64,000 nucleotides of DNA, taken from NCBI GenBank assembly GCA_004431415.1, contig QPMI01000500.1, positions 6,294 to 70,293 on the forward strand, given 5' to 3'. This stretch comes from Cyanophora paradoxa CCMP329 (lineage: Eukaryota; Plantae; Glaucophyta). The position numbers and the translations under genes were made by a program. Below, piece after piece: positions 2,323 through 26,086 of the stretch. The notes under the pieces were generated by a model. The model saw nothing but the letters and a program-made list of their open reading frames with translations. It had not been told where the DNA came from and ran no database searches. Positions within the stretch are counted from its first letter, which is position 1, and each line of letters opens with the position of its first letter.

Positions 2323-2365
2323 GGCTTTTACTATATGGATTTATAAAATTCCTGATAAGTAAAAG

Positions 2366-3919
2366 ATGCCTCAGAAGATCGTTTTAGCATTGTCAGGGGA
2401 GGTGCAAGGGGCATTATCATAACCAGGCTGCTAAAAGAAATTGAAAATCGAACTGGCAGAAGAATAATCGATCTTGTGGATCTTGTAAGTGGAACTTCCA
2501 CTGGTGGGATCATTGCAATAGGTTTGAATATCAGGCATCCTGATAAACCAGGTGAACCTAAACTGACAGCAAACGATTTACACAATATTTACCTAACTCA
2601 ACTGCCCTTGATTTTTGCAAATCCTCGAAATATAATCGAAAATGCCCTTTTTAACACAAAGTATGATGTCGGACCCTTGGAGACTGCAATCAATTCAGTT
2701 ACTGGTGAATCACTAATACAGGATTCCCTAAAGGACATTGTGATTACATCCTTTGATACTCAGAATATGAAACCAATATTTATCACAAATGATAACAATT
2801 ACAACTTTATGCCTTGTAAGATTGCTGCTAGGGCTACTTCTGCTGCTCCTACATATTTCTCTCCTGTAAGCATTGTTGATTTCAATCGAGGAGTATTTGT
2901 CTGTCTTATTGATGGTGCCATTTCGGGAAACAATAATCCCAGTGTGTGTGTTACAGCCATGCAAAGAAGATTTACAGTGATGATGATGATATTATAGTAA
3001 TAAGCATCTCTTGTGGTGAGGTGGACCCACATTTAGAGTCTGATTATGTGGGTATGCTTATGAGACTGTCAATAGCTGGGGCATTCTCTCATGGATTGCC
3101 TCAACAGATGGAAGCCCATTGATTAACATGCTCATGGCTGCAAGTGAGCTTTCTGCCCTTGATAAGATGGAGGAGTTGTTACCCTACAACTATGATCAGG
3201 ATTATGGGAGATACTATAGGCTATCAGTCCCTCTTCCAAATCATATAGTAAGCTCTCTGGATGACACTTCTAAAATCCCAGATATGATAGCATTCACTGA
3301 AACATACATAGCAGCAAACAATGATATGATTAATAAGCTTTGCAGCCTACTAGTAGCAAACTATGAACTTAAGAACCCTTCAAAGGCTTACATCTCATCC
3401 ACTCTCACTACATCACCTCCTTTGGATGCCAATTGGTATCAGCTTGCAGATGATGCCTTTACTGCCTCATCCTCTGTGACAGGTAAAGAGCCTTTCATGG
3501 CAAGACCTTCAGCATTTGGCTGGGAAGCTGGAGCCTTTGCTCCTGAACAGATATGGGAAACCCCCACTGAATACCTTCAAGTTGCTTTCCCATATACTTT
3601 CGAACTCTCCTCTGTTATTGCCTATGGTTCAGGGGACACCAATGCTTTTATTAAGACTTTCAATGTGGCAACATCCACTGATGGGATCAACTGGTCTTTT
3701 ATTCGATCAGATGGGCAAAACAAAATATATGTCTGTGAGAACATTAACAATGCTCACAACTCTGGTGATGTGGCTCTATTGAGTGGATTTCCTCTCAGCA
3801 TCAAGGATGCTTTTTACATAGGTTTCTCTCTCAGAATTAAATATATTCGCATTTATCCCCTTGTGTATGTGAATGCTCCCACAATGAGAGTTGATTTCAC
3901 AGGTGCCTTTATTCGATAA
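2366..3919 (+). CDS. Patatin-like phospholipase fused to C-terminal F5/8-type-C (discoidin) domain; frameshifted
   Basis: SGGGARG (after a 1-nt G correction), GTSTGG, ARATSAAPTYF, IDGA. C-terminal AFTASSS...EYLQV...STDGINW...YIRIYP...MRVDFTG. Confidence 0.88.
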
Positions 3920-4841
3920 ACTCCAACTGAAACGAATTATCGATTCCATTCATATCAATCAGTTCACCAAAGTAATCTTTAAACTCCACAGTGAGTTCCC
4001 TTATCACCAGGTTTCTGTCATTGATTTGAATAAATTCTGCATGTTCACCACTATGGTAAACATAGCCACCTATATCTTTACTCAATTGCAATCTAAGGAT
4101 AGCCCCCTGGTTGTGTGGTTGCGATTTCGGAATTATATTGTGTCTGCTGGCAAAGGGGGCTAGCTCTTTAATATGCATGTACAGATACTGCTCAGCATTC
4201 ATATCAGACATCTTATTACTGGTGAAATAATACTGCAAGGGCTTTGAGGAGAGTCTGGGTCCTGAGAAGGTGATTCCCCATGCTGGGTGATCAGGTGTCA
4301 TAGGTTTGCCATCATACTTTAAAAGGTTCTCAGGTCGATATGGAGATCCACCAACAGGAGGAGTGCTATAATACCCAGTGGTGTATTCAGTAGAACTTAC
4401 ACCCAAAAGCTTCCCTATTCGCTTGTTGCTTGCAATAAAACGAAACTCATGGTTACTGTAAAACTCCACTTTATAGGTTGTTGGGTTGTAGAATATCTTG
4501 AAGTCGAAAAACACAGTTTTATCTGCAATGGTTTTGAAGCTTGAATAGTTCAGCCCATAATTATAGGGATGTGTGACCCCAAAATGACCCTGGTTAATGT
4601 AGCCACTGGGAAGGGGATACACTTTCTGTGTGATGATTTCATTGTATGAACCATCTTGGTAGTTAAAATCAACTGTTAAATGATCAGTTCCCACACTGTT
4701 ATAGATACTGTTTGGAATCTCTGCATAGAGAACCCTGCATTCTCTTGGTCTCTCTACTGGAGTTGTGAGGGTGACCCTGTAAGAGTTTTCAGATTCCCCT
4801 TGGCTTCTATCCCTGCTATCAATATTAACAAGTCGATTCAT
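3909..4841 (-). CDS. Minor capsid protein (penton) 1
   Basis: N-terminal VNIDSRDR...AEIPNSIYN and C-terminal LTVEFKDYFGELIDMNG..SFQLEF, typical of PLV/virophage single-jelly-roll pentons. Near the MCP. Confidence 0.85.
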   Translation of the reverse strand: MNRLVNIDSRDRSQGESENSYRVTLTTPVERPRECRVLYAEIPNSIYNSVGTDHLTVDFNYQDGSYNEIITQKVYPLPSGYINQGHFGVTHPYNYGLNYSSFKTIADKTVFFDFKIFYNPTTYKVEFYSNHEFRFIASNKRIGKLLGVSSTEYTTGYYSTPPVGGSPYRPENLLKYDGKPMTPDHPAWGITFSGPRLSSKPLQYYFTSNKMSDMNAEQYLYMHIKELAPFASRHNIIPKSQPHNQGAILRLQLSKDIGGYVYHSGEHAEFIQINDRNLVIRELTVEFKDYFGELIDMNGIDNSFQLEFIE

Positions 4842-4870
4842 TTTAATATATAAATATAGATAAAAGAAGA
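4842..4870. promoter_or_regulatory. 29-bp AT-rich spacer, putative bidirectional promoter between the two penton genes
   Basis: TTTTAATATATAAATATAGATAAAAGAAGA-like spacer between divergent ATGs, identical in B (38972-39000). Confidence 0.55.
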
Positions 4871-5877
4871 ATGCCTGTGGATTACATCGAGGTTAGCTCA
4901 TTTAATACAATCTCTGGTGATGGTCCCACATCAAGCTTTGTGGCTAGACTCCCAGTAGTTATGAGAATGTGAGGGCTGTAAGACTGGTATCAGCCGAATT
5001 TATAACAGCATCCCTATGGTGAGTGGGAAACCAAAGTAGGAGATGTAACAATCGACAATTCATTTAGTATTTACTATTCTGAAGAACTTGCAGGAGCTGG
5101 AATTGATGGTATCCCACAGTTCGCCCAGCTGAGGACTTTGAACAGTGGAAACAAATCATTATAAGTCGCAAAGCCCCCATCCAAAGCCACCAACAACTGG
5201 TGAATGTTATTAATGAAAAGTTCGATTTAAAAAATCCTAAACCATCTCTTCGCTGCAAATGGGATGAGTCACTGAAACGAATAGTATTCCATTCCGAAAA
5301 AAAGTTTTACCTGGCTTTCTCACTTGCTGTAAATCCAAACCTGCAAACAATTCAAAAGCTATTGAGTTCAGGTAGACTGCTTGGTCTTGATCCTGGAAGA
5401 TATGGCAATTCCTCAATCCAATCACAAGTTTATGATGCTCTCACTGATGGTATCTTTACTGGGACTCGAGTGAACGGTATTCTATCTTCTTTTGAGCCTG
5501 AGAAGACCAGGGACAGTGTTTTGTTTGTGAGAGTAAAGGAGCTGGGTGATCTGGTGCAATGTGGGGATGGTCTTTTGACTGGTTACTTCCATAAAATAGT
5601 GGTCCCTGACAAAGACTATGGTGAGCATGTAGTTTACAATTCAACAGAGGCTCATCCACTTTACAAATACTATAATAAGAAAGTTGGATTATCCACTTTC
5701 TCGGTTGATATTGTAAATGCTATTAATGAACCAATTGATTTTGAGGGTCAACCTGTTCATCTTACCTTTGAAATTCGCTATGGTGATGAGCCAGCTGGGG
5801 ACCCAGTTTATGAATACTTTAAGATGAGAATGTCACAGCTTCACCCTTCCTATCCAGTTATTACAAGCTTCGCATAA
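4871..5877 (+). CDS. Minor capsid protein (penton) 2 (frameshifted in A, intact in B)
   Basis: B copy reads SSFVARLPSSYENVRAVRLVSAEFYNSIP; C-terminal FSVDIVN...IDFEGQPVHLTFEI. Confidence 0.75.
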
Positions 5878-5930
5878 ATTAAGGATCATTGGTAGATTTT
5901 TTATGTTGCAGTATAATAAAAGAGAATATA

Positions 5931-7298
5931 ATGGATATCACTTCCACTCTTCAAAGACTTTCGCTGAAAGAAGCCCTAACAACCCCAGAGGAGGCGAAAG
6001 CCTTTTTCCTGGATAACTCCCTTATGCTTGGTCTCGAATCCAAGTCTAAGCCAGTTCTAGTTGTTGTGAATCCCAGCAATACTTTTGAGAATAATGTAGG
6101 AAATCGCATTTCCTTCAAGCTACCTCGCTACAATTTCTGTGGAAAACTCGAACTTGCTTTCGACCTACCAGAAATCACTTTTGCTGGTGAAGATCTAGTT
6201 CGCAATGGATACACTCGCCCAGTTGGTGCTTTAGTTCAGCGACTTGAAATTACCTATGGATCTTACACCTACCACATCCCTTCTGATTTCCTTGCTCATT
6301 TCCCCCTGGTCTATTATTCGGAGGATCAACTAGCTAAAAAGAAACGCTCAATGGGCATGGTTCATGGTATCCCTGCTCATGGAACCAACCGACTTGGTGG
6401 CTCATTTTTCGTTGAGATCCCAGTGCCTTGGCTAAATCACTATCTTCCCCTTGGTGCTTTATCTGGTGAAATGGTTGTTACTGTTTGGTTTAAGGATGCT
6501 GGAAAGGGTTATGTTGAAACTTCCTATGGTGGTCGCTCTCTCCCTGTTGTTGGTGGGACAGCTGCTGATAAGACAGAAGATGATGGTCTTGGTGATACTG
6601 CTAATGCTACACTTGCCCATGTTGGTCAAAACATCACCACTTTCAGTCTTGGTGCAACAACCCCTGCTATTTCAATTACTTCTCCTCGCCTTTAAATGCA
6701 TGCTATTAATGTTTCTGATGAGCTTTTCGCTACTGTAATTGAAAAAGTAAAGACAACTGGCATGGCTATTCCCTCCCTTGATATTGGATTTGTAGATGCC
6801 ATTGCTTTTGCTGCCAAGGGCAATGCCCAGCCCAATCGAATTAACCTCTCTCAAATCTCAGGTCTTGTCTATGCTCTGCTTGTTTCAGTTCGTGATTATG
6901 AGACTGTTGACAAATCCAATGGCTCCCACAGTGTTCTTAAGACCTATGCCAACTCCAAAGAGATAACATTCACTGTGGAAATAAATGGTCAGCGTCTCTA
7001 TGCCACTGAGCCAATTTCCCTACTCAAAGGTGCTGAGCTTATTGCTGATGCCTTCAAATGCTCTAACATGGACAAGGTTGCAGATAAATATGTCCTTTCA
7101 GGTTTAAGTTTCTGCATTGATGGAGAGAAGGCGATTCGAAATATTGCTCAAAGTGGATTTGTTGACCTGACAAATTCCTCATCTTCATTCCTCACACTCT
7201 ACATGCCCACAGATAAGACAATCAATGTTCAAGTTCGCGCTCTCATGCATAGTTTCCTCATTATAGACGGTTCAGGTGTTCGTAGAATCAATTTATAG
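5931..7298 (+). CDS. Double-jelly-roll major capsid protein, with an in-frame TAA at 6693-6695 (TAC in B)
   Basis: ISFKLPR, YLPLGAL, INLSQISGLVYALLVSVR. Clearly homologous to the C MCP (AFDLPR, YFPLLAL, ISLANVSGLVHAILMTVR). ~455 codons, between penton and ATPase. Confidence 0.85.
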
Positions 7299-7357
7299 AC
7301 CATTTTCAGTCTCCCTGCATTATTTTTATCTGTCTTTATTTAGGAAGATCTACAACA

Positions 7358-8140
7358 ATGCAAGATTTAGAAGAGTTTAATGTCTCTGAAATGATTAAAG
7401 GTGTTTTCAGAGCCATTTTTATAGGCAAAAGTTGTACGGGAAAAAGCGAATGTGTAAAGTATTGGTTAAAGCAATTACATGATGCCAAAGTTATTGATGT
7501 TGTCCTAGTTGTGAGTGGGACCAGCTTCAATCATTTCTGGAGAGAGGTTGCAACAGTAGAACTTGGTAAATGGGATGCCGGTTACATTTCAAAGCTTTTG
7601 GATGAAAGGCAGGAGAAAATCGAAAAGGGTGAACCTGTCAACCACATGTGTGTTGTTTTAGATGATTTAATTGATAATGAGATAATTGATTTAACCAGAG
7701 ACAAGGTGGTGTCATCTCTGTACAGTAGGGGCAGACACTCGAAAATATCCATTATCTGCATCACACAAAAGCTAAGAAAAGTCTCTTCGACTATTCGAGT
7801 TAATTCTGATTATGCTGTTTTCCTGAGTGCTGCTAATCGCAAAGAACTTGAAGCCATAGAGGAAGAATACAATATAATGCGAAACAAGGAGGACTTTTAC
7901 AAAATGTTTGAAGAGTATGTCCACTCCTATCAGTATATCGTTTGGTCCTCTGCTGGCTACTCTGTTAAATACTTTGTAGATAAAGCTGAGCTTGTCAAAG
8001 ACTTCCCATTTCCTCGCTTCCACAGAAAGCCCAAAAAGAAAGAAGATGAACTGAAACCACCAGAAAAAGAGGAAGCCCCAAAAGAAGTGAAAAGCCAAGT
8101 CCATAGCAATAAATTGATGCGATATAAACGCGGTTTATAA
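7358..8140 (+). CDS. A32/FtsK-like genome packaging ATPase
   Basis: Walker A GKSCTGKS, Walker B VVLDD, RGRHSKISIICITQ. Confidence 0.95.
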   Translation: MQDLEEFNVSEMIKGVFRAIFIGKSCTGKSECVKYWLKQLHDAKVIDVVLVVSGTSFNHFWREVATVELGKWDAGYISKLLDERQEKIEKGEPVNHMCVVLDDLIDNEIIDLTRDKVVSSLYSRGRHSKISIICITQKLRKVSSTIRVNSDYAVFLSAANRKELEAIEEEYNIMRNKEDFYKMFEEYVHSYQYIVWSSAGYSVKYFVDKAELVKDFPFPRFHRKPKKKEDELKPPEKEEAPKEVKSQVHSNKLMRYKRGL

Positions 8141-8168
8141 AATTATCTCTCATTCTAATAAAGATACA

Positions 8169-8903
8169 ATGCCTCCCAAACGAAAAATAGGGATCCCAGC
8201 TGGGGCTGTTGGCTATTCAGGTGGTGGAAACAATGGATCTATTAACACTGAACCAATGAAATTCAATGGTATGAACGAAATCAAACCCTCACAACCCCAA
8301 GAAGACCCCCTAAATGCTGCCTATGAGGAATCAGTCGATGACAAAGCCCCACAAAGTTCAACTGCTGACCAACTCAACATTTCACCAGAAGCCTCAAAAA
8401 TGAAAGCTGTTGCTGAGGGTGCCAGGCGAATTATTGGTGCTGCTGATGATAAAGGTTTAGGCTTGCAAGATCTGTCATTGGCTCGCAAAGGTGAAGGTCT
8501 AAGTAAAGAATCAGACAAGGTTATTCAGTCTATGGCTGGTGAAGTCACATACAAGACTGCTCCCACTCAAAATATTCATCGAATTCCCAAGGCTCAATGG
8601 GATGAGATGACTGCTAAACTCAAAGATCTGGAAGCCAAATCCAGTGCTTTGGAGCAGTATGTTACTGAGAAGAAAGAGAGAGCCAAGCTAAAGGAGATGC
8701 TTCGAAAGGAAGTTTATAAAATGGGAATCACTGGTGTCCCAGATAAACAGTTTATTGCTAAGAAAGAGAACCAAATCGATGAGCAGGCAGTAGATGAAAT
8801 GAAAACAAAGACCCAAAAGGGAACCATTGAACCTGGTGCCACCAAAGCTGAAGTAGAAAAGGGAGTAGCCCCAGCAGTATATAAAAGACGAGTTTGGCTT
8901 TAA
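8169..8903 (+). CDS. Hypothetical protein (possible virion core protein; N-terminal PPKRK NLS-like)
   Basis: 244-aa ORF conserved in B (42284-43005). Confidence 0.65.
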   Translation: MPPKRKIGIPAGAVGYSGGGNNGSINTEPMKFNGMNEIKPSQPQEDPLNAAYEESVDDKAPQSSTADQLNISPEASKMKAVAEGARRIIGAADDKGLGLQDLSLARKGEGLSKESDKVIQSMAGEVTYKTAPTQNIHRIPKAQWDEMTAKLKDLEAKSSALEQYVTEKKERAKLKEMLRKEVYKMGITGVPDKQFIAKKENQIDEQAVDEMKTKTQKGTIEPGATKAEVEKGVAPAVYKRRVWL

Positions 8904-8925
8904 TTATCTCTGTTTTATTAGAGAT

Positions 8926-9198
8926 ATGGACATAATACGAAAGTTCTTCGAGATGTTCAGTCTGCATGTGGTGAGCAATTGCCACAGTGGATGTTGTGAC
9001 ACAACAGTGGAGTTTGAGATGTCAGATAATGAGGATAATGCCTCAGAAGCAAGAGAGAGAAGGAGGTCTACAGTTTCTGTGGAGTCAATGCCAGCAGACC
9101 CCACAGAGTATACATATGAGCAACAGGAGTATCCAAGGAGAAGTTCTCTGCCAGCAGAAAACGTTTTCTCTGGGAATATAAATGGAGGACACTATTAG
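8926..9198 (+). CDS. Hypothetical small protein (CHSGCC motif)
   Basis: Packed in tandem; conserved in B at ~43027-43290. Confidence 0.5.
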   Translation: MDIIRKFFEMFSLHVVSNCHSGCCDTTVEFEMSDNEDNASEARERRRSTVSVESMPADPTEYTYEQQEYPRRSSLPAENVFSGNINGGHY

Positions 9199-9427
9199 TT
9201 TAATCGAGTTTACCAGTGATGAACCTGTTACTGAGGGTTCTATAAGACACATTCTAGCAATGCAGAAACGATATAGAGACGACCCAGCATATAGAGAGTA
9301 TAAGAAGCAACAAGCCCTGGCATCCTATTATCGCAGAAAAGCCCAAAAAGAGGAGCAGAGACCCAGAGGAAGACCGATTAAATATTATTTGCCAACTGAA
9401 AGTAGCAATGGACCCCCAGGTCTATAA
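9182..9427 (+). CDS. Small basic protein with AT-hook-like motif
   Basis: RPRGRPIK; YRDDPAYREYKKQQALASYYRRK motif shared with 9580-9906. Confidence 0.6.
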   Translation: MEDTISLIEFTSDEPVTEGSIRHILAMQKRYRDDPAYREYKKQQALASYYRRKAQKEEQRPRGRPIKYYLPTESSNGPPGL

Positions 9428-9611
9428 GATAATCGAGAAAAAGCGGTCTCAGTATGCAACTGAGGCAGCTATAAAAGTTTACAGACAGGAACTGGTGTTC
9501 GCAACAAAAAATGACTTAAGGAAAAAGTACATAGGTTGTATTGAGGAAAAATTATTTTCGTATCTACTATTAAAGAGAAATGCCGAATATCCGCAAGATA
9601 CTCACAGATGA
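9408..9611 (+). CDS. Hypothetical protein containing the left breakpoint of the A/B cassette swap
   Basis: First ~23 codons shared with B (43495-43565), then unrelated. Confidence 0.45.
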   Translation: MDPQVYKIIEKKRSQYATEAAIKVYRQELVFATKNDLRKKYIGCIEEKLFSYLLLKRNAEYPQDTHR

Positions 9612-9906
9612 TGAAAAAGCAGAAAAGCTGAGACTGAAAAGGGAGCAAGATGCCCAAAGAAAACGCGAAGCCTATCATAAAAAGAAGGAGGAACGATTAT
9701 CCCAAGGAGCCGCTACAGTTCACACACCAGAAGAACTCAAAAAGATTGCCCTCAGACACCAGAGGAAATACAGGGAAAATGAAGAATATCGCGAACAGAA
9801 AAAGGCAAAAGCGCTGGAATATTACCACAAGAAGAAAGATGAACAACCCAAGACACCCAAAGAGCATAAACCGGTTGGAAGACCTCGGAAATATATCGAA
9901 GAATAA
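9580..9906 (+). CDS. Small basic protein with AT-hook
   Basis: KPVGRPRKY; YRENEEYREQKKAKALEYYHKK. Confidence 0.62.
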   Translation: MPNIRKILTDDEKAEKLRLKREQDAQRKREAYHKKKEERLSQGAATVHTPEELKKIALRHQRKYRENEEYREQKKAKALEYYHKKKDEQPKTPKEHKPVGRPRKYIEE

Positions 9907-10015
9907 ATTCTCGATCAAAACAAATCTTGTAGAAATTGATTTGATCGGAGGCAAAAAAATGACAGCTTTCTTCCCTCTTTTTTAAAACTGTACCTATATA
10001 TCGAGACAGTATCCC

Positions 10016-10064
10016 GACCCAAAACTACTTAAGGACTTGGCAAATAATAGGATATATATAAAAG
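10016..10064 (+). promoter_or_regulatory. Putative promoter: GACCCAAAACTACTTAA ... TATATATAAAAG
   Basis: Same motif upstream of the B helicase (~46376-46418, minus) and 47696; variants upstream of 13386, 13514 and 46824. Confidence 0.6.
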
Positions 10065-10124
10065 ACAATTCCTCCTTCCGAAATTATTTTCTTCGTTAAA
10101 GGTAGAAGTCCCCCAAAATCGAAA

Positions 10125-12719
10125 ATGAACAAAATCGAGAAATTCGCCACCCCTGTTGAAAATGCCACATTCCTTAGTACTCTCATTGGTGATCGCAACA
10201 AGGTCACCCATGTATTTGATTCTGCCGAAGATGCCCTTGAAGCCATTGATAATAGCAAGGTTAAGACCTGGGCTGAATGCATTCAGCCTGAACAAGTCAC
10301 CAGAGTTTACCTGGACCTGGATAAATTCGCTGATTTGAAGGAGAACATTGCTGAAAACTATGCTGAGGCGGAAGCTGTTGTAAGAGAGATGAGAGATAAG
10401 CTATGGAAGCGATCTGGGACCACTTCGATTAACGATATTGCTGTTGCAGTTCGCCATAGAAGGGTTTATTTAATCAAGGAGGATGTCACCAAGTTCAAGA
10501 TCTCAGCCCACTTTATCATTAAATCGCTTGCATGCAAACATGAAGATATCCCCAAGCTTTTCAAAGCAATGGGTTTGGTGAAAAATGAGGATTATGACAG
10601 TGGAGTTTACAGCTCCACACAGAACCTTATCTGCCTCAATTGCTGCAAAGGTGAGACTCTGGATGCTCAAAATAAATCGAAAAAAGATGTTGATAAAAAC
10701 GTTTGCTTTAAGAAATTCGTTGACTGTGACAAAGTGTTAATGCGAAATGAGGACTTCTTTGTATCTTACTTCTCAGCTACTACTAAACTTGTGGATGAAT
10801 CGAATATTTCTGCATTCGCAAATTATAGCCCTGAGCCAAAACCAGTTAAAAAGGAGCCGAAAAGTGATAAAGTGAAGACTGAGAAGGTAGAAGCTGAAAA
10901 AGACACTGAACCCGAAAATCCTGTTACTTTCGAGCTGCTACAAAGTGTTATAATGGGTCTGAATGGTGAGAGAGCTAATGAGTATAAAACTTGGATTGAT
11001 GTAGGACTGGTCATCATCAATGTTGGGGAAGACAACAAGTTCACCCCTAAAATGCAAGCTGAACTCTTCCACCAATTCTCAGAACAGAGTGACAAGTATG
11101 ATTATGATGAATGCCAGGAGAAGTTTACACAACTTCGCAGAAGCAAGAAGAAGGCTGAGCCTGGCAAAGTGTTGACCTTCAAATCCTTGGTTTATTGGTT
11201 GAGCAAAGATAACAATGAGCTTTTCAAGGAACTCTTCCCCAAAAAGTATGCATTCCTACCAGAGGACACAGATGAAATCGATTACAAGACTGCAAGTATC
11301 CCTCCTTTGGCTGAACATTACAATGTGCATAAGAGGTATTTCAATGCTCGAATGCATCATGTTGAAAATGTTGGTTGTGTGATGCTCTGGGATGAACAAC
11401 TACTTTGCTGGATGCCCAAAGATATTGGGAAGCTCTCTACAAAGCATTTCCCCCACTTGATGCATAAGGTGATTGTGAATGAGGGGACAGATAATGAGAA
11501 AGAGAAATGGGAGCAATCATTTAGGAAATGGATTGTGGATCCAACAGCCACAAGATCAACTTACATGGATTTCCTCCCACCTCCTGCTACTCTCAGTGCC
11601 AAATGCAAGTCTGTATTTAATCTCTATCCAGGAATGAAGGTTGACCATCAGCAATTCGAAAATGCTCCAGAGGATGTAACTGCTGAGATGATTAAGCCTT
11701 TCCTAGATCACTTGTTCTTAATGTCTGGTGAGGATCAAAATACTTACGAATATCTATTGAAATGGTTTGCCCACATGCTGCAAAAGCCTGGGGAACTCAA
11801 TGGAGTATCCATAATCTTCATTGGTGAACAGGGTACTGGTAAGAATGTGTTGGTTGATACTTTTCAAAAGAAGATACTTGGAGATGCCCTGAGTTATGCA
11901 ACTGGTAAGCCAAAAGAGGATCTGTTTGGTCGATTTGCCCACAATAGAGAGGATAAGATCTTGATTGTTGTCAATGAAGCCTCAGGCAAGGACACATTCG
12001 AAAATAATGATATGCTTAAGGATCTCATAACTTCTGATAAGATTGTAATTGAACACAAAGGGATAGATTCATACACAAAAAGCAACTTTGCCAGGATTAT
12101 ATTCACCAGCAATAATAACATTCCAGTTAAAATTGAAGCTGGAGATAGGCGATTTGTGGTTGTTGAAGTTAGTAAGAAATTCGCAAAGGATAGGTCATAC
12201 TTCCTTCCACTTGTCAAATGGCTAAATGATCACTGCAATATTCGAAACATTGCCCACTATTTGAGAACCAAAGTTGACTGTGAGGATGTGAACTGGATTG
12301 CTGATAGACCCCTCACAAATAAATACTATTTAGCCCAACAGGTATGCGCCCCAATCATTCTTATGTTCACTAAGTGGCTTGTGGATCGAGGCTTAATTTC
12401 CGAGAATAAATGCAAGTCTGGTAGCCTTGTGGAAACCTGGAAGTGGTTCCAGGAGTTCATTACCAGCAACAAATATAAAAACGATTATAATAGTCGCAGA
12501 TATTATACTGAAATGAGAAGTGTTACATATATTCAAGTGAAAACTACAAATGGCAAACAATACTATCATTTCCTATTCCCACAAGTATTTGAGGAATTCA
12601 GAAAGATGAAACTTGTAGATGATGAGACTATTGAGGAGGAAGCTAATCCAAGGATGAAGCAAGACCTACCTGCTGCTGATCCTGATGCATCAGATTATGA
12701 TTCTGATGTTGAAGTTTAG
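10125..12719 (+). CDS. AEP primase + PriCT-2 + SF3 helicase (type A)
   Basis: RVYLDLD and KISAHFII (AEP), EYKTWIDVG...FSEQSDKYD (PriCT-2), GEQGTGKN, IVVNEA, IIFTSNN, DRRFVV. Confidence 0.92.
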   Translation: MNKIEKFATPVENATFLSTLIGDRNKVTHVFDSAEDALEAIDNSKVKTWAECIQPEQVTRVYLDLDKFADLKENIAENYAEAEAVVREMRDKLWKRSGTTSINDIAVAVRHRRVYLIKEDVTKFKISAHFIIKSLACKHEDIPKLFKAMGLVKNEDYDSGVYSSTQNLICLNCCKGETLDAQNKSKKDVDKNVCFKKFVDCDKVLMRNEDFFVSYFSATTKLVDESNISAFANYSPEPKPVKKEPKSDKVKTEKVEAEKDTEPENPVTFELLQSVIMGLNGERANEYKTWIDVGLVIINVGEDNKFTPKMQAELFHQFSEQSDKYDYDECQEKFTQLRRSKKKAEPGKVLTFKSLVYWLSKDNNELFKELFPKKYAFLPEDTDEIDYKTASIPPLAEHYNVHKRYFNARMHHVENVGCVMLWDEQLLCWMPKDIGKLSTKHFPHLMHKVIVNEGTDNEKEKWEQSFRKWIVDPTATRSTYMDFLPPPATLSAKCKSVFNLYPGMKVDHQQFENAPEDVTAEMIKPFLDHLFLMSGEDQNTYEYLLKWFAHMLQKPGELNGVSIIFIGEQGTGKNVLVDTFQKKILGDALSYATGKPKEDLFGRFAHNREDKILIVVNEASGKDTFENNDMLKDLITSDKIVIEHKGIDSYTKSNFARIIFTSNNNIPVKIEAGDRRFVVVEVSKKFAKDRSYFLPLVKWLNDHCNIRNIAHYLRTKVDCEDVNWIADRPLTNKYYLAQQVCAPIILMFTKWLVDRGLISENKCKSGSLVETWKWFQEFITSNKYKNDYNSRRYYTEMRSVTYIQVKTTNGKQYYHFLFPQVFEEFRKMKLVDDETIEEEANPRMKQDLPAADPDASDYDSDVEV

Positions 12720-12727
12720 GTTTATTC

Positions 12728-12911
12728 AAAAGTGGACTCATAGTTGACTCAAATTTATCATAAAAGACCCAAACAGTCTTTTATTTATGGTTTATTTATC
12801 GATTAGGTTGACTAAGTGGGGAGAGTTGACTCATTTTTTCACAGATTCTTAAAGAGGACTCTGCCCTAAAAAGAAATAAAAAGTGCCTCAACTCCACCCA
12901 CTAAGTCAACT
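12728..12911. repeat. Origin/iteron-like motif 1 (GTTGACT), directly downstream of the type-A helicase
   Basis: AAAGTGGACTCA.AGTTGACTCA, then GGTTGACTAAGTGGG..GAGTTGACTCA 78 bp later, then inverted TCAACT/AGTCAAC. Same motif and spacing in the TIR at 19473/19551. Confidence 0.75.
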
Positions 12912-13386
12912 TAACACTTAGATCACTTCTACATACTGGACATTTGAATTGATCTTTTGATGGCAGCTTTGCTGTGCAGTCACCACATACTTGACTATTA
13001 CACTTGAAACAACTCCATGTCCCAGGGGGTTCATCAGTTTCCAAACAAACAACACATGTTTTATCCTCTTCCCTCTCAAAAGATATGATGACATCATGTA
13101 AGAACGATTTCAGTATACTCTCGGAAATCGATTGAGGAACTAAGTAACCACTGTCTTTAAAGAGAATAAAGCAAAGTTGCTTTCTCTCAGAAGAATATCC
13201 ATTCACCACATTCAAGTTATGAAACATTTTGACATGCTTTTCAGTATAAGAAATCACATAAATTTTGTTTTCATTCAATGAGCGATCTAAGAGATCTCTG
13301 GTTGCATCAGTAAACATACTTGTGGCATCCTCAACAGGTATTGAGGTCAAAGATTTCAGAGTTTCTATGATATCTTGGGAGTTCAT
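12901..13386 (-). CDS. RING-finger protein (putative E3 ubiquitin ligase)
   Basis: CVVC...CFKC...CGDC...CPVCR. Confidence 0.8.
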   Translation of the reverse strand: MNSQDIIETLKSLTSIPVEDATSMFTDATRDLLDRSLNENKIYVISYTEKHVKMFHNLNVVNGYSSERKQLCFILFKDSGYLVPQSISESILKSFLHDVIISFEREEDKTCVVCLETDEPPGTWSCFKCNSQVCGDCTAKLPSKDQFKCPVCRSDLSVKLT

Positions 13387-13513
13387 CGATCCTTTCTACT
13401 AGTAGAAAAGAAAATAATTTTTCCTATATATCCTTTTTTCAAATTCGCTTTAAGCCATTTCTAAAAAATGATTTAAGAGATAGAAAAATATATTTATATG
13501 TTAGAAGTAAGAC

Positions 13514-13864
13514 ATGGCTGGAACAGATCATGATTCTGGATCGATCTATATGATTGAGAGTCAGGAAATGAACAAAATCTACATAGGGAGAACCTCACAA
13601 AAAGTACAAATCCGATGGAAACAACACAAATCAGGTCAAATGCCATCCACAGCAGACCTATGCAAGGCTGCTGATGTGAAGTTTTCAGTCTTGTATTCAA
13701 GTAAGAAGGGTGGGCATGAAGACCTTATGAACAGAGAAGCATACTACATGTATCTGTTTGAACCTTGGATAGTCAATTTACAAAAACCGAAATCGAGATT
13801 TAGGATAAATAGGTTTTTGCGATTCCATTCAGAGGAAGCCAATGGATCCATTAAAACATTTTAA
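13514..13864 (+). CDS. GIY-YIG endonuclease
   Basis: SIYMIES...IYIGRT...IRWKQH...RE. Confidence 0.85.
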   Translation: MAGTDHDSGSIYMIESQEMNKIYIGRTSQKVQIRWKQHKSGQMPSTADLCKAADVKFSVLYSSKKGGHEDLMNREAYYMYLFEPWIVNLQKPKSRFRINRFLRFHSEEANGSIKTF

Positions 13865-13925
13865 AAATGCGTTTAGAACATCCTAAAATAAAATATCCCC
13901 TTAGAATAGGAACAAGTTAGGGATA

Positions 13926-16900
13926 ATGCCCCGAATTACCAACAAACTCATAAGGGAGAAGAAATGGGAACTCATGGGATTGCTGGGAACACTTTATGCA
14001 GCCCATGAAATAACAGAGGCTGAATATGACCGGGAAATAGATTTAATTGCAAAGGGTAGACCCACTTTAGCCAGATTAACCAGAAAAGCAAATAACCTAT
14101 ATGATAAAATTGAAACCTTGGATGAACTGGATAGGCTTAGGCAAATAGAACCAGAGGCAGAAGATGGAACAGCCATGAATGAATTATATCGCTGGCTCAC
14201 TTACAGAGCCAGAAGGGAAGTTGTTGTAGATGTGATTGAATTCCTGGACAGAATTGCTACATCCCTTCCAGATCGATTAAAGCAGGGTTTAGATCAATTC
14301 AGGGCAATCAAGGTTCGCTTGTCTTTTATCTGCAAGTTCGTAAAAGTAAGCAATCCGCAGGTTTGGATATCGAAATACATTTACAGCGATTATTTTGTAC
14401 TAACCAGATCGAGAAATATTCGAACTGAGCTGAATAAAGCAGCCCAAATATGTCAGGAGCAGATGAATGTGGTTGATAGCTATCGCTTAGAAAGAATTGA
14501 AATACTCAGAGTGGCTATTATGAGTTATGCTCCAACAGGTGGATGCTTTCTACAAACCCCAGAGTGGATTGCTAGGAAGAGAGCCACAGTAAATATTCGA
14601 AATATTGATGATTCCTGCTTCGAAAATGCAATTTTGGCATATATTCACAGAAAAGCGATAAACTCCCATAAGAGGAATGAGCTTTCACAGTATCGCAAAT
14701 GGAAATACTCAGCAATCGCTTATAATCCGCTGGCTCTCAATTTCGACAATATCCCATTCCCTGTTGCCTGTGATGCTGAAATAATTGATAAATTCGAATC
14801 TCAAAATGCAGGCATCAGCATAAACATATTTGGAATGGATCGAGATGTTATATATCCCCTACATCAATCCAGCAACCCAGGCAGAAAGCAAAAGATTAAT
14901 CTCATGCTCATTCATGATGATGAAGGGAATGGTCATTATATTACAATCATGTCCCTTTCAAGATTATTGAAAGTAAACCATGAAACATACAATGATCAGA
15001 AGTTACACTACTGTGACACATGCTTATCTCGATTCAGGTCTGAGGCTAAACTCACTGCTCATGTGGACTCAAATAGATGCATTGATTGGAGACTCTCAAA
15101 GGGAATCACACCAAAACCTGAGACCACCATAGAGTTTGGACTGAAAAACCTCAGGAAAACTGTTTGGCTTCCTGTTGTGGTTTACTGCAAGATTGAACAT
15201 AGAAGCATCCCCATTGATGCATCAAAATCTAAGAGGGAAGTCTCAGCAGTCAACCTGAGAGTAGTCACTGGGGCAGATGTTCAGGAGTTTCGATTTGAGG
15301 GTCAGGATCCAATGGGAGGTCTCTTTGAATGCTTGGAGTCCAAAGCAAGAGAACTAATCGATTTCCTGTTTACCAACATTCCTATGAATGAACTCACAGA
15401 TGAGCAGAAAGCAATTTACAGAGCTACCAAACACTGTTACCTTTGCAGTGAGAGGTTCACTAAGGAGAACTTCAAATGCAGGGATCATGATCACCACACA
15501 GGTCATTATATTGCTCCTGCATGCAGAAACTGCAATCTCCATAGGAGAATCTCAAAGCAAACCAAAGTTGCAGTAGTTGTTGACCAAATGGATGACTGTG
15601 GGACATTCATTTTCAGAAAAATAGCAGGCATGGGTGATAAAAATCGAATCGAAATCCTTTCGAAAAACTTTGATCAATACCTTTCATTGCAATGGGGTCT
15701 TTACAAGTTCATTGATGCAAGCAATTTCATGGATTTTGGAGCTGCTGATGTAGATGAGTTAATGAACAAATTCCAAGCCTTCAGAAGGCTTTCACACTCA
15801 GTATATGGACTTGACCCAGTTCATTATGTATCTGCACCTGGGTTATCTTGGGATGCTATGCTTAGGACCACCGAGGCAAAAATAGAGCTTATAAGTGATG
15901 TAGAGCAATACGAATTTGTTGAGAGGGGAATCAGGGGTGGCTTTGCAACAATGCCTTGTAGGTATGCTGAGGCTGATGGTGAGAACTCCCACATTATGCT
16001 GTTTGATGCTAACAACTTGTATGGCTACTGTTTGAGTCAGCCAATTCCAGTTGGTGATTTTAGATGGGAGACCGAATTCAACCCACAAGATAACAGATCC
16101 AGTTTCCTGGAAGTTGATCTGGAATACCCAATAAGGCTATATCTAGACCACAGTGATTTCCCCCTAATTATTAACAAGAAAATAGTAGAATATGCGGAAT
16201 TATCACAATATCAAAAGAGCCTGTTGGATCTTTCAGGAGAAGAGCTTGATAAGACCCCTAAGCTAACTGCAACCTTTGGTTCTGTGGCAAACTATGTGAT
16301 TTCTGAGCCTCTTCTGCAATATCTGTTGGACAAAGGTGTGAAATTAAAGAAAATTCACAGGGTCCTCTCATTTACTGTGGCTCCTGTAATGAAACCCTAC
16401 ATTGAGCTGAACACTGATATGAGAAGGAAAGCAGTGAATAAATTCGAGGCTGATTTCTATAAACTCATGAATAACTCAATCTATGGGAAATGCATTGAAT
16501 CATGTAGAGGTAGATCTGTGGTTAAGATTGCAAACAGTGAGAAACTGTTTATGAAATATGCAGCTTCCCCATTGGTGAAATCAACAAGTCCCATAAACGA
16601 AAAAGCAGTTGCCTTTGAGTTTTACACAAAGCATGTGAAACTAGATAAGCCTGTTGCAATTGGGGCTTATGTTTTGGATGCAGCCAAACTGCATAATTAC
16701 CAGTTCTTCTATGATACTGTAAGGTCCCAATGGACAAAAGCAAAGTTACTATTCCATGATACTGACTCCTTCTGTCTATATATTGAATCTAAGACCTTAC
16801 AAAAAGATATAGAGAATATATCTTATGCCTTGGACCTAGGGGGATCTAACAGAATGACCCCAGGTAAATACAAAAATGAAATGCCTGGCTCTGCAATATT

Positions 16901-17171
16901 GGAGTATGTAGGTCTGAGAGCAAAAGTTTACAGTTTCAGAACTGCTGAGATTGAGAGGAGTAAGCTCTCTGGGACTTCCACTGAGGAACTCCAATTTAAT
17001 GATTTTAAGCAGTGTTTATTTGCAGGTATCAGCAAGACTGTGACTGCAAAGCAGAAGAGAAGGGCAGATCACACAATAATAGATACCGTGAGTAGAAGGG
17101 TTGCCCTAAACTGCTTTGATGCAAAGAGATACATCTTACCAGATGGTATTAATTCTGTTCCTTTTAATTAA
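13926..17171 (+). CDS. polB: Protein-primed family B DNA polymerase (terminal protein/vOTU-like N-terminus, EndoVII-like insert)
   Basis: DANNLYG, KLMNNSIYGK, HDTDS, GLRAKVYS. CYLC...RDHDHHTG...ACRNCN insert. DDSCF/GHY motifs. Confidence 0.96.
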   Translation: MPRITNKLIREKKWELMGLLGTLYAAHEITEAEYDREIDLIAKGRPTLARLTRKANNLYDKIETLDELDRLRQIEPEAEDGTAMNELYRWLTYRARREVVVDVIEFLDRIATSLPDRLKQGLDQFRAIKVRLSFICKFVKVSNPQVWISKYIYSDYFVLTRSRNIRTELNKAAQICQEQMNVVDSYRLERIEILRVAIMSYAPTGGCFLQTPEWIARKRATVNIRNIDDSCFENAILAYIHRKAINSHKRNELSQYRKWKYSAIAYNPLALNFDNIPFPVACDAEIIDKFESQNAGISINIFGMDRDVIYPLHQSSNPGRKQKINLMLIHDDEGNGHYITIMSLSRLLKVNHETYNDQKLHYCDTCLSRFRSEAKLTAHVDSNRCIDWRLSKGITPKPETTIEFGLKNLRKTVWLPVVVYCKIEHRSIPIDASKSKREVSAVNLRVVTGADVQEFRFEGQDPMGGLFECLESKARELIDFLFTNIPMNELTDEQKAIYRATKHCYLCSERFTKENFKCRDHDHHTGHYIAPACRNCNLHRRISKQTKVAVVVDQMDDCGTFIFRKIAGMGDKNRIEILSKNFDQYLSLQWGLYKFIDASNFMDFGAADVDELMNKFQAFRRLSHSVYGLDPVHYVSAPGLSWDAMLRTTEAKIELISDVEQYEFVERGIRGGFATMPCRYAEADGENSHIMLFDANNLYGYCLSQPIPVGDFRWETEFNPQDNRSSFLEVDLEYPIRLYLDHSDFPLIINKKIVEYAELSQYQKSLLDLSGEELDKTPKLTATFGSVANYVISEPLLQYLLDKGVKLKKIHRVLSFTVAPVMKPYIELNTDMRRKAVNKFEADFYKLMNNSIYGKCIESCRGRSVVKIANSEKLFMKYAASPLVKSTSPINEKAVAFEFYTKHVKLDKPVAIGAYVLDAAKLHNYQFFYDTVRSQWTKAKLLFHDTDSFCLYIESKTLQKDIENISYALDLGGSNRMTPGKYKNEMPGSAILEYVGLRAKVYSFRTAEIERSKLSGTSTEELQFNDFKQCLFAGISKTVTAKQKRRADHTIIDTVSRRVALNCFDAKRYILPDGINSVPFN

Positions 17172-17174
17172 GAG

Positions 17175-18560
17175 ATGCCAGCAACTGGAAGAATAGTTAG
17201 GAGAACCACTGAGCAACTACAAGGTAACCTACTGCCTATCACAGTTCCAAAGGAGGAAAAAGGGGAATCTCGAATTGTCAAAAAATCAGAGATGAAAGAG
17301 CTTGTCCCTGTGGAGATCCCAGTTGCTATTGCAGTGAAAGAAACTAGCAAGATTGCCAAGAGATTCTATGATGTGAGGACTGGTTACAAAGGGCTTCAAG
17401 CTATGAGGGCTGAGTTACCAGATGAATCCTATAAGCAGTTGCAAGAGTTCTATAAAAAACAAGAGGTAGTTCAGATCAATGCACCTGCTATATCTAGGAA
17501 GAGAGATCCCATGGTTCCAATAAGGCAACCCCTTGATACCTATGTGATTGATTTGCTCTTTTTCCCAGCTTATAAGAAACAAAACAATGGCTATGATACC
17601 TTTATGACTGCTATGGAATCAACACTGAGAACTGGATATATCATACCTATAAGAGATAAATCAGCTCTCACTACATTAGCTGCATTTAAGCAGCTTGAAA
17701 TGAGAGTGGCAAGACCCATAGTAAAAGTTCAATCAGATGCTGGGAGTGAGTTCCAAAATCGAATATTCCAGGAGTATTTATCTAGTAAATTCATAGAACA
17801 CCAAGTGAGTGGAACTGCAGACCATAGAAGCCAAGGTCGAATTGAAGCCTTTAACAAGCAGATTAAGAGACTGATCACAAACTACTGCATAGCTAATAAC
17901 ACAGCTAGATTCTTTGATGTGTTAGGTGATATTGAGTATAATTACAATAATACAGTTCACTCAGCTACTAAGATGAAGCCAGGCGAAACTACAGAGGAGC
18001 ATTATAGGTATATAGTGGGATTAGAAGATGAAAGATTCAAGAAATCAATAGCTTACCTTGATACCATGCAGCCAGGCATGTTTGTTAGAGTGAAAGTTGA
18101 GAAAAATGCCTTTGCTAAACAGGGTAACAATTGGTCTAGGATGGTTTACACTGTTGATAGTAGGGAAGGCTTTAAGTTTAAGCTAAGGAGTCCCACTGGT
18201 GAGATCATAGAAAACAGGTTTGCTTTCCATGAGCTGTTACCTGTGAATTCAGTTGAGTATCTGGAAACACCTACAGTGGATGCATTAGAGCAAGCCAAAG
18301 AGGAAGCCAAGGTTGATGCTGCTATAAGGAGAGAAGGCATAGAAGCTGCTAATGAAGTCCCAGATAAGCCTTTGATAGAGGCTAGAAAGGAGAAGACTGG
18401 CAAGGTTAATAGGGAACTCAAAAAGCTCACTATAGCAGGGACACAGAAACTTTCTGAGGTTAATAGCCAGAGATGGTATAATGACTTTCAGACTACTAAG
18501 GAGTCATATACAGCCCCTAAACCTCAGAGAACACTAAGAGAAAGGACCAAAACTAGCTAG
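17175..18560 (+). CDS. int: Retroviral-type (rve) DDE integrase
   Basis: YVIDLLF, VQSDAGSEF, QGRIEAFNK, YNNTVHSATKMKP. Confidence 0.95.
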   Translation: MPATGRIVRRTTEQLQGNLLPITVPKEEKGESRIVKKSEMKELVPVEIPVAIAVKETSKIAKRFYDVRTGYKGLQAMRAELPDESYKQLQEFYKKQEVVQINAPAISRKRDPMVPIRQPLDTYVIDLLFFPAYKKQNNGYDTFMTAMESTLRTGYIIPIRDKSALTTLAAFKQLEMRVARPIVKVQSDAGSEFQNRIFQEYLSSKFIEHQVSGTADHRSQGRIEAFNKQIKRLITNYCIANNTARFFDVLGDIEYNYNNTVHSATKMKPGETTEEHYRYIVGLEDERFKKSIAYLDTMQPGMFVRVKVEKNAFAKQGNNWSRMVYTVDSREGFKFKLRSPTGEIIENRFAFHELLPVNSVEYLETPTVDALEQAKEEAKVDAAIRREGIEAANEVPDKPLIEARKEKTGKVNRELKKLTIAGTQKLSEVNSQRWYNDFQTTKESYTAPKPQRTLRERTKTS

Positions 18561-18785
18561 TTTGCTAGGCAAAAACTCGTTTTTTCCAAATATATGTATG
18601 ACTGATATACATATATGCACATGATATACACATAGTCTTGTAGATCTTATCAAGCGCTTCACAGCGATATGCAGAACGTTGCGTTTTGATGATCTGGTGA
18701 TGAGATATAACAGTTTGAAGATGCAAAAGTCACTTGCCATAGTAGACTTGGTGAAACACTAGCCCAGGAGTCGACTTGGAAGTAA

Positions 18786-18904
18786 GTCGCTTTTGGCTCA
18801 GCGGTTAAGGCGCTTGGATTTCCGAGTCGCAATTCAAATCCGCTCGGGAACCTTTACTTCGTTCGCCGTGAAACTTGAAAAGTAAAAAAAAAACGCGGTT
18901 TTTT
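18786..18904 (+). ncRNA. tRNA-like / Pol III-type small RNA or SINE-like remnant
   Basis: Box-A-like TGGCTCAGCGGTTAAGGCG, box-B-like ATTCAAATCC inside a hairpin, no anticodon arm, then A10 and T6. Confidence 0.4.
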
Positions 18905-19456
18905 CTAGATTAATGCTGTACCCGTCTGGAAAATCATTATTCACGTTTGCTACGATATCTCAGCACCAACTTATCAAATCGATGCGCTTTAAACGTCATA
19001 AAATCGAGCATTTCAAGGCGGTCTGAGCGCTTATCAGCCATATCGACATTTCGATAACCCTGACTCGAAATCGCGGTGAAAGCGATTTTGAATTTTATTT
19101 TAAATTCGATTAAAATGCATTAAACGTGAGTTTTTAATATAGATCACCAGGAAGTTATCAAATCGATGCACTGACGATCGAATATAATCACATATATAAT
19201 ACATAACAATAACTTGCAATCACATATACGAATCTCGATGTGTATACATCGCTATTACGATTTAAGCGAGTTTTGAAATTCAAAATAATTCGATTAAATT
19301 CGATTATAACTCAAAAATCGCGAGTTTTAACCATATACTTATCAATTCGATCAACGTATGATATCTTATATTCCGCTATATTGTATTGCTTCGATAAACG
19401 TGATCACATATATGAAAACATCAATCTAACATTGCATTTAGTAAGCATCTCCCCTA

Positions 19457-20565
19457 GATTCCCCCTATAATTAAAGTGGACTCAAGGTTGACTCATATTA
19501 ATCGTAAAAGTAGTAATAGTATATGGATTTTGTTACGAATTCAATGCAAGGGTTGACTAAGTGGGTTGAGTTGACTCAAATTTCACAGGAAATAACAATG
19601 AATCAGAGTATAAAATGCATTTTTTGAATCAACTACACCAACTAACACTGAGAAAGTAGTTTATATCATATAGTATTACCATATATGGTTTGTCAGGCAC
19701 TATAATATAGTTGTCAGGCCCTAATATAGTATGTCAGGCATTGTCAGGCACCTTTTTAGAAAACTTTTATAAAATTGAAATTTCATTGTTAATCCAAACA
19801 ATGACTTAGCCAAAATAAAATACTTTATGAAAATCGATAGATTTAATGCCTGACAAATAAATGCTGCCTGAAAGATTTAACACCAACTAACACTGAGATT
19901 TTCACAATATATGAGGTCCTTACTGAATATGGTTTGTGTGACAGGTGTGACAGGTTTATCCCGTGGATTTTAAAAATCAATTTCTCACTAGGACTTTCCT
20001 TGGGATTGACCTGTCACACCTGTCACACCTGTCACACCCAAAATCCTAAGGGTCCCCCCTTAGACTCAACAAAACAATGATAAAATCATATAAGTTTCAT
20101 GTATAATTACGATTGAATTCAATAAGAGATCGATTTGTTAATATAAACAAATGAATCATTTATGGATCTTAATCGAGTTAAGCGATATATTTCCGATTAA
20201 ATGAATTAAATTTAATTAAATTTAATCGAGAAAGTACATGAATATAATATCGATTAAATCAATTAACAAACAGACCAATCACACATAGTAAAATGCGGAG
20301 TTTTAACCAGAGGCAAGATCTAATTGAGATTCAGTTATATTATTCGGAAATATATACAGATTATCGATTAACTCAGTAAGACTAATCGGAAAATAAGAGA
20401 AATTTACGATAAAATATCGAAAAGAATACAAAATAATCGAAATAAATGAATATTCGATAAGATATACACAGATTATCGATTGATTGAAATAGAATATACG
20501 AGATATATCAACAAAATCAATTAAGATTAAGCCGAGGGTTAAAACTCCGCATTTTACTATGTGTG
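19457..20565. repeat. Right TIR of element A
   Basis: Reverse complement of 26503-27386 and direct homolog of 53394-54444. Confidence 0.92.
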
Positions 20566-21167: not shown

Positions 21168-21885
21168 AAATGAGATAGTGGGGGTTCCAGCCCACCCACC
21201 TCTTTCTCACCCTCACTCCTCCAAACCACCCCAACCCACACACTCCAACGCCTTCCAACACACATTCTCTTCCATCCCTTCGTTACGTCTACCACCACAA
21301 CCTCTCCAAACCAACCATCCAGCAACCGCTAGGTAGTATCTAACGTCTAGTCCGATCGATTTTGCAAAAGATATAGCAGTGATTTTAGGCGGACCCCCAA
21401 AGCGCCGGTCTCAGAATAATCTTCAGATACAGCTAGACGTTAATTTTGTGTACTTTGAATCTAACAGAGAAAACATGTTTAGCTCAATTCTAGACGATAT
21501 TAATGAGTACAATGAAGCTAACAGAGGAAACACGTTTAGCTCAATTCTAGACGTTAGTTGTGTGTATTTCGAATCAAATGAGATAGTGGGGGTGCCAGCC
21601 CACCCCCCTCTTTCTCACCCTCACTCCTCCAAACCCACCCCAACCCACCCACTCCAACGCCTTCCCAACCACCACTTCCGTCCACTCTCTCCTTACGTCT
21701 ACCACCTTCCTCTCCCTCTGGTCTACCTCTCCTTCCAAACAGCAACCGCTAGGTAATATCCAACGTCTAGACCGATCGATCTTGCAAAAGATATAGCAAT
21801 GATTTGAGGCGGACCCCCAAAGCGCCGGTCTCAGAATCATCTTCAACATCATTTAGACGTTAATTGTGTGTATTTCGAATCTAAA
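21168..21885. repeat. Two ~300-bp direct repeats (period ~408 bp) with C-rich tracts and ~57-bp TAGACG subrepeats; probable terminal region of C
   Basis: AAATGAGATAGTGGGGG..CCAGCCCACCC at 21168 and 21576; GCGGACCCCCAAAGCGCCGGTCTCAGAAT twice. Confidence 0.8.
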
Positions 21886-21978
21886 AAACAAAGAGGTTTC
21901 AAGGGTTATGCTACACGTAATTACTATATCATCGGAATCTAATTACATACTCGAGTTCAGGTTCTAGCTAGACGCTAA

Positions 21979-22611: not shown

Positions 22612-22681
22612 TTGTTTTAAATAAGGAACAGAAAAAAGTCGACAGACAAGCTGCCTCGGCTGCGCATTCGCGAAAGTGAAT

Positions 22682-23557: not shown

Positions 23558-23600
23558 CTTTACAACAATATACGTGAAATATTCTGTAATATAATATCAA

Positions 23601-24830: not shown

Positions 24831-24831
24831 A

Positions 24832-25675: not shown

Positions 25676-25699
25676 CAAAAAGATAAAGGTGTTATTCCT

Positions 25700-25948: not shown

Positions 25949-26086
25949 CTCTTTTTCGTTACTTTTACATATTGCAATATATTTAAGGCATATTCACGCG
26001 ATTCTACCTTCGAATTCTCTTTGCGTAATATCCAGCGGGTTTGGCGCCTGCTCTGAGCAATGGTTCAGCAGCAATTTCGAGTTTTT

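Follow-up and report, generated by a model that had tools for sequence, protein, structure and literature searches.

The window, by which we mean the whole stretch of 64,000 nucleotides that was analysed, contains a cluster of endogenous Polinton-like elements, here called A, C, and B in their order along the DNA, followed by a Ty3/gypsy pol gene (Table 1). The features of Polinton-like viruses that we found comprise a capsid, an A32 ATPase, pPolB with an integrase of the rve type, and terminal inverted repeats; pPolB, the integrase, and the ATPase are encoded by both A and B. Element C (21168-21892 and 21979-26509) has an intact capsid gene and ATPase and its own repeated end region of ~400 bp.

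Table 1. Features of the elements, the two cassettes, and the hairpins (positions in the window)
Feature	Position	Strand	Remarks
Element A	from before base 1 to ~20566		left end outside the window
Major capsid gene of A	5931-7298	+	one in-frame stop at 6693-6695
A32 packaging ATPase	7358-8140	+	Pox_A32, E 3.4e-12
Cassette A	9477-13904		slot between the 9182/9408 ORFs and polB; alignment and depth steps at both edges
Small basic protein, 108 aa	9580-9906	+	paralogue of flank ORF 9182-9427 (42% over 48 aa)
Primase-helicase, AEP (C962R-like)-PriCT2-SF3, 864 aa	10125-12719	+	intact
Type-A element	12729-12913		short repeats and ~110-bp hairpin (12803-12913) that begins 83 bp past the helicase stop; predicted origin
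RING-finger gene	12901-13386	-	Pfam; inserted at the foot of the type-A hairpin
GIY-YIG nuclease, single domain, 116 aa	13514-13864	+	PF01541, E 7.3e-10; domain at 9-84
pPolB with EndoVII-like insert	13926-17171	+	DNA_pol_B_2, E 2.7e-13; common to A and B; exonuclease motifs lost
rve-type integrase	17175-18560	+	E 2.5e-4, under the curated cut-off; common to A and B
Array, right terminal repeat of A	19473-20037		type A 19473-19645 (stem decayed), type C 19734-19871, type B 19936-20037
Element C	~22000-26500
Element B	~26503-54445
Array, left terminal repeat of B	27040-27365		type B 27040-27146, type A 27196-27365
Cassette B	43564-47784		same slot; alignment
Type-B hairpin, 9-bp repeat arms	43897-43982		begins 73 bp past the helicase stop; predicted origin
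Primase-helicase, Prim-Pol/Zn-motif/D5_N/SF3	44056-46356	-	split over four frames here
Small basic protein, 84 aa	46570-46824	-	directly upstream of helicase B
Cys/His-rich coiled-coil protein, 271 aa	46881-47696	-	weak DUF5710 match; score 0.87, a lead only
Array, right terminal repeat of B	53410-53918		type A 53410-53574, type B 53620-53712 and 53820-53918

A structural model of the element C capsid (pLDDT 54.6, pTM 0.61) matched the capsids of iridovirus and PBCV-1 (E 4e-16), the double jelly-roll matches being headed by the NCLDV/polinton type with virophage capsids lower. The capsids of A and B aligned to that of C (tblastn, E 3e-9 and 1e-7), those of C and A being ~23% alike, and the nearest capsid homologue was a EukProt protein of the glaucophyte Cyanophora paradoxa with 57-63% identity to the two capsid pieces of A, which makes a unicellular eukaryote the probable host. 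A pattern search of metagenome contigs with the capsid alignment returned 571 matches and no related locus. Upon scanning 30 proteins, a part of the ORFs (many frames of B are broken), we found no protease family among them; an adenain-type capsid protease is a mark of canonical (group 1) Maverick-Polinton elements. The terminal inverted repeats of B (26502-27360 against 53407-54445, inverted) are 84-89% identical, and the right end of A matches both. We found no target-site duplication around B, whose two flanks differ; its left end (26503) cuts into an ORF of element C that resembles an integrase, and its right end (54445) into the Ty3/gypsy pol gene. B may accordingly have arisen by recombination between two insertions, or be an assembly join. 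The outermost ~285 bp of every terminal repeat (20280-20565, 26503-26790, and 54160-54445) are bounded by inverted arms of 42 bp, like a small element or a doubled end. Further downstream lie GC-rich short repeats with two TGTGACA units (61020-61242) and ORFs that by eye resemble the start of another pPolB-type gene (62418-64000), and this region (61020-64000) is possibly a fourth element.

The initial annotation proposed that a replication cassette of A is precisely replaced by another in its sister B, between highly similar flanks and with breakpoints inside the 9408 ORF and just before polB. Self-BLAST confirmed the replacement, as the flanks align (907-9495 with 35044-43582 at 94.6%, 13889-18758 with 47769-52630 at 93.8%) and the inserts do not, their sole alignment being a short motif that is also present in the terminal repeats. 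On the right, identity restarts at AATAGGAACAAGTTAGG (13905-13921 in A, 47785-47801 in B), so that the cassettes end at 13904 and 47784, where that breakpoint had been placed; on the left, the last identical run stops at 9476/43563, within the 9408 ORF as proposed. The swap thus stood and its sharpness did not: weaker in-frame likeness extends beyond the identical run up to 9495/43582, and a looser match begins near 13889/47769, indicating that the edges are slightly graded and not razor-sharp. The comparison also narrows what was exchanged, as it supports a swapped unit that consists of the primase-helicase module only, with pPolB and the integrase fixed in both copies. A second replaced segment lies between the integrase and the terminal repeat (18760-19390 in A, 52630-53330 in B), where A has three repeats spaced by 184 bp, and in B a short tandem array is found along with part of the integrase end in inverted orientation.

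Pfam searches bore out the gene content given for both cassettes, with an AEP-PriCT2-SF3 helicase, RING, and GIY-YIG in A and a Prim-Pol-D5-SF3 helicase in B, and the two helicases showed no significant BLASTP match to each other (best E 1.6). Helicase A matched PriCT_2 and DUF5906, and its N-terminus was AEP_C962R-like (score 0.96; E 3.6e-5 against 0.082 for the best of 20 shuffles); it had four homologues at 26-32% and no related locus among viral contigs, and single-sequence folding gave no usable model (pLDDT 33.6). Helicase B matched Prim-Pol, D5_N, and DUF5906, and its four pieces are colinear with a homologue of 775 aa (P0005). The 108-aa basic protein of A, previously named an AT-hook protein, does carry a GRPRK motif, which we take to be what that label denotes, and matched no Pfam or PHROG family; it is likely DNA-binding. 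The DUF5710-like assignment in B likewise held in part, the match being present at 21.7 bits against a curated cut-off of 26.5. The RING and GIY-YIG matches were above or at the Pfam cut-offs.

Reads bear on cassette A alone, as short-read contigs of 4 runs (out of 24) were placed on 8000-15500. In all four, depth drops at ~9500 and rises at ~13900, and the depth over helicase A is 0.13-0.24 of that over the left flank, a rough figure that gives no copy number; hence, most copies appear to have another content in the slot. Contigs bridged the right junction of A in three of the four runs, and none among the listed pieces bridged the left one. Within cassette A, a joint from 12910 to 13463 occurred in all four runs at a depth of 967-2486, with the bulk of the A-type depth skipping 12911-13462 and the RING gene at 0.06-0.23 of the helicase depth, indicating that most A-type copies are without the RING gene. 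In one contig (1/4 runs), the RING gene is followed by the polB leader with GIY-YIG missing (joint from 13455 to 13857). The RING gene is therefore optional cargo, and the GIY-YIG gene probably is as well.

Divergence between the flanks of A and B is a patchwork of 1% to 12%, with the 5' end of polB as the most diverged part (~11%, compared to 1% left of the slot). The first kilobase of polB (13926-15000) had 0.49-0.69 of the left-flank depth at an 85% threshold, which hints at additional slot types and at polB N-termini of greater divergence. Gaps in the alignment (35044-52630 in B) number 74 in B versus 20 in A; 51 of those in B are single bases in homopolymers, and they are densest at 42000-43500, a pattern like that of long-read errors. 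Long decay as the source of the frameshifts in B was rejected, since the core genes differ mainly at synonymous sites (synonymous to non-synonymous 144:50 in polB, 47:7 in rve, and 34:7 in the ATPase); error-prone sequencing or very recent damage fits better, and frameshifts in such copies can be assembly errors (PMC10120064). Upstream of the cassette genes, a promoter-like YTTAARG motif, picked after the sequences had been seen, lies within 110 bp of 6 out of 7 genes and of none of 17 other genes; with the motif in both, the two cassettes have the look of self-contained units that belong to a single expression class.

The polymerase that flanks the slot may explain why a helicase is kept there. 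In pPolB of both A and B, the exonuclease motifs are missing together with ~100 residues, and they are intact in all four relatives compared. We found no SF3 helicase in the fetched loci of these four relatives with an intact exonuclease. In mavirus-type pPolB, loss of the exonuclease is described as going with gain of a helicase (PMC11161782). We suggest that a pPolB without proofreading would need a helicase, in which case the slot would be refilled and not lost.

Both cassettes follow one order, with a small basic gene, a primase-SF3 helicase, and a hairpin of ~100 bp, the last being absent from the initial annotation. The internal hairpins folded strongly (z -5.61 for type A and -5.79 for type B, with 0 of 200 shuffles each reaching these values), and their stem scores of 16 and 18 compare with 7-10 in all 30 background windows; at loci of distant D5-like helicases, a score of at least 15 occurred only once in 62. 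Types A and B are unrelated (score 24, shuffle mean 26), and for each the terminal repeats contain matching copies (score 119, with shuffles reaching at most 49 and 43), both types being present in all three terminal repeats of the window. The evidence on hairpins thereby covers two cassettes and three ends on a single contig. Likeness to the internal hairpins is 62-66% for the terminal type-A copies and 71-87% for those of type B, which argues that the terminal copies are not assembly duplicates. Folding of the four type-B copies in the terminal repeats gave z -7.0 to -11.8, and in their stems two pairs are changed on both arms; this covariation amounts to one or two events among related copies, was matched in 11 of 500 shuffles (324 of 500 for pair counts), and could result from arm-to-arm copying. 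In the three terminal type-A copies the stem is lost (z -0.8 to -1.5), and given their 62-66% likeness they may be relics. Contigs in three of the four runs contain the type-A hairpin arm 12806-12839 with other flanks that are absent from the window, one of which is similar to the beginning of the type-C loop, a hint that the genome has additional hairpin variants.

The association of hairpin repeats with helicase genes extends beyond this locus. In IMG/VR, the type-B repeat occurs at 48 loci on 47 contigs and lies 9-432 bp past the stop of an SF3-type helicase on 14 of these contigs, compared to 3.1 expected even with such a gene on every contig (P 5.5e-6; some are near-duplicates), and at the 3' end of AAA_25 helicases on 5 further contigs. 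Strong stems were found at 12 of the 14 SF3-linked loci, versus 1 of the 62 distant D5-like loci. These helicases emerged from a Pfam scan of 54 out of 79 neighbouring ORFs, with shorter overlapping frames dropped; a first helicase profile had been positive at only 1 of the 48 loci. The D5-like negative set derives from a scan with helicase B, which yielded 80 loci at 29-38% identity, 62 of them with a match and 400 nt past the stop; at this identity, the relatives are too distant for a test of cognate pairing. A permuted 9-bp control repeat was not null, as it follows SF3 helicases in 4 of 15 loci, three of them near-identical (24 of 30 ORFs scanned). The 9-bp repeats hence seem a generic mark of the 3' side of mobile primase-helicases, which counts against one-to-one specificity, and the data suggest a broad class of 9-bp-repeat candidate origins in phage-like contigs. 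Permuted-repeat loci past SF3 primase-helicase genes are L057, L061, L062, and L065. The type-A pattern gave no informative match in IMG/VR (0, 0, and 1 loci), and the type-C pattern gave two loci with no helicase. In the archaeal plasmid pRN1, replication requires a 100-bp stem-loop that lies 54 bp past the Prim/Pol-SF3 gene and stays functional when moved (PMC4234260).

We lean, with somewhat better than even confidence, towards a reading in which the basic protein, the primase-helicase, and the origin hairpin form interchangeable modules that are exchanged by recombination in the shared flanks, the terminal repeats carrying origins for both. By analogy with pRN1, each hairpin would be the loading site of its own helicase. 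The cassettes would move via crossover or gene conversion among the many copies in one genome or cell, with which the patchwork of flank divergence is consistent. The terminal repeats would have acquired their hairpin units singly, through duplication and invasion by helicases; of these, type-B units at least are presumably still in use, and the presence of both types would let either cassette drive replication after a swap. More speculatively, and with rather less probability than its negation, the terminal repeats may act as a multi-origin adapter, an expandable hairpin array with one type per circulating helicase cassette (A, B, and an unseen third), such that any helicase replicates any member of the family, in cis following a swap or in trans out of a sister copy. 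The internal hairpin of each cassette may make such terminal copies needless. If the adapter existed, one could read from the array which helicase cassettes the family has had and still has, and a type-C cassette would be expected at another place in the host genome.

The terminal hairpins could instead be dead scars of mobile helicase-origin units that had invaded the terminal repeats or been located next to them, with replication starting only by protein priming and at the internal hairpin. The decayed terminal type-A stems and the differing content of the three arrays (A+C+B, A+B, and A+B+B) would suit this idea, for which a model of mobile helicases invading terminal repeats is in print (PMC11296320), but in both sequence variants the terminal type-B stems match or surpass the internal one, and they are good even in element A, which has no B-type helicase gene. 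Hence, we consider it improbable that the whole array is dead.

Similarly unlikely, in our judgement, is that a nuclease spreads cassette A, as the initial annotation had inferred for GIY-YIG. The enzyme at the right edge of A would cut B-type alleles, probably in the 5' region of polB, and repair would copy in the whole of cassette A (intronless or collaborative homing). The GIY-YIG gene lies 61 bp from the polB start, and the adjacent end of polB is diverged, with 40 non-synonymous differences in 396 codons over codons 1-400 versus 8 in 576 over codons 501-1080, and with only 0-2 differences per 100 in the kilobase left of the slot. The protein has a weak PHROG 'homing endonuclease' match (E 1.8e-4), and by eye its catalytic residues look present against the motif, which we counted in favour of homing. 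Free-standing endonucleases of T4 cut within neighbouring genes, at distances of hundreds to thousands of bp (PMC2988022), and homing has already been put forward for related viruses (10.64898/2026.10.13.758929; PMC11296320). Raised divergence beside a non-homologous insert is, however, equally given by plain linkage. A homing endonuclease requires a separate DNA-binding domain with a long recognition site, for which this lone catalytic domain leaves no room, and we found no other family in the protein in Pfam or PHROGs and no useful match to PDB sequences. In addition, the RING gene occurs without GIY-YIG in the one contig mentioned, the A type is a minority by the rough depth figure, and homing would leave the hairpins and their terminal copies unexplained. 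With a single, apparently optional domain in a minority cassette, the proposal was not supported.

That cassette B owes its place in the slot to an assembly join between repeats is very improbable: despite the excess of alignment gaps in B, its unrelated flanks without a target-site duplication, and the restriction of read support to A, both junctions carry short diverged homology in register that a misjoin would not yield, the depth steps at both edges of A in all four runs imply other slot content in most copies, two short loose-end contig strings match the polB allele of B exactly, and the B genes have the same promoter-like motif as the A genes.

Returning to the exchange of helicase-origin modules, the swap and the homing idea are already known in kind; what is new is the paired hairpins and the terminal array. 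Replicase mosaicism has been described in Polisuviricotina (Barth, Ha, Aylward, bioRxiv 10.64898/2026.10.13.758929), including replicase swaps between tandem sister genomes and collaborative homing (10.64898/2026.10.13.758929; 10.64898/2026.06.19.733378; for further known work, see PMC12220804). The present locus shares with those cases sister genomes in tandem that agree in their morphogenetic genes but differ in their replicases, the nearby endonucleases, and the repeats around replication genes, but here pPolB and the integrase stay and the primase-helicase alone is exchanged. It also differs from the text of the mosaicism preprint, whose Fig. 6 marks palindromes and repeat arrays, in having its own hairpin for each helicase and both types in the terminal repeats. 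An end-module model has been presented for entomopoxvirus-associated PLVs, mavirus, and Gezel-14T, with inverted repeats proposed as the primase-helicase origin (PMC11296320); our locus resembles it in the variant helicase and GIY-YIG alleles beside pPolB, and resembles Gezel-14T, which has a repeat of >300 bp both in its terminal repeat and downstream of its module. Unlike in those systems as described there, the helicase slot here is internal, with ~6 kb between it and the nearest hairpin array, and one family contains two helicase-hairpin pairs that are unrelated as well as a third hairpin type.

A close parallel to the cassette layout is the Sulfolobus minimal replicon of pRN1 (orf56/orf904), with a small DNA-binding gene, a Prim-Pol-SF3 helicase, and a stem-loop of ~100 bp some tens of bp past the stop (PMC4234260), and cassette B has the same Pfam Prim-Pol domain; pRN1 is, however, an archaeal plasmid with a tested origin, whereas ours is a predicted origin in a eukaryotic virus that also has pPolB. 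As in the Seg family of T4, a free-standing GIY-YIG gene lies beside a conserved replication gene with a diverged near end (PMC2988022), but here it is a lone catalytic domain known from sequence alone. The locus is like mavirus-type pPolB in that loss of the proofreading domain goes with a helicase gene (PMC11161782), and differs in having a primase domain on the helicase and two exchangeable kinds of the latter, and in a capsid fold nearer to the NCLDV/polinton type (element C model). Modular terminal repeats are known (10.1101/2022.07.28.501842), as are terminal palindromes, which in the text concerned are not helicase-cognate arrays (10.64898/2026.07.28.741278). In the texts consulted, we found no description of terminal repeats with an array of two hairpin types that are each cognate to a helicase; the figures and supplements, above all Fig. 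6 of the mosaicism preprint, may bear on this.

Swaps of replication modules are common in Polinton-like viruses, and an incoming helicase must find an origin in the genome that it enters; beyond the proposal that the terminal repeats serve, the literature consulted on these viruses names no origin. The present locus offers short, concrete candidate origins that accompany two unrelated helicases between flanks of 94% identity, and through it origin use, the specificity of the helicases, and homing can be put to a direct test, both in vitro and by surveying the copies. Overall, such a pairing of hairpin and helicase would provide a simple explanation for the viability of swaps.
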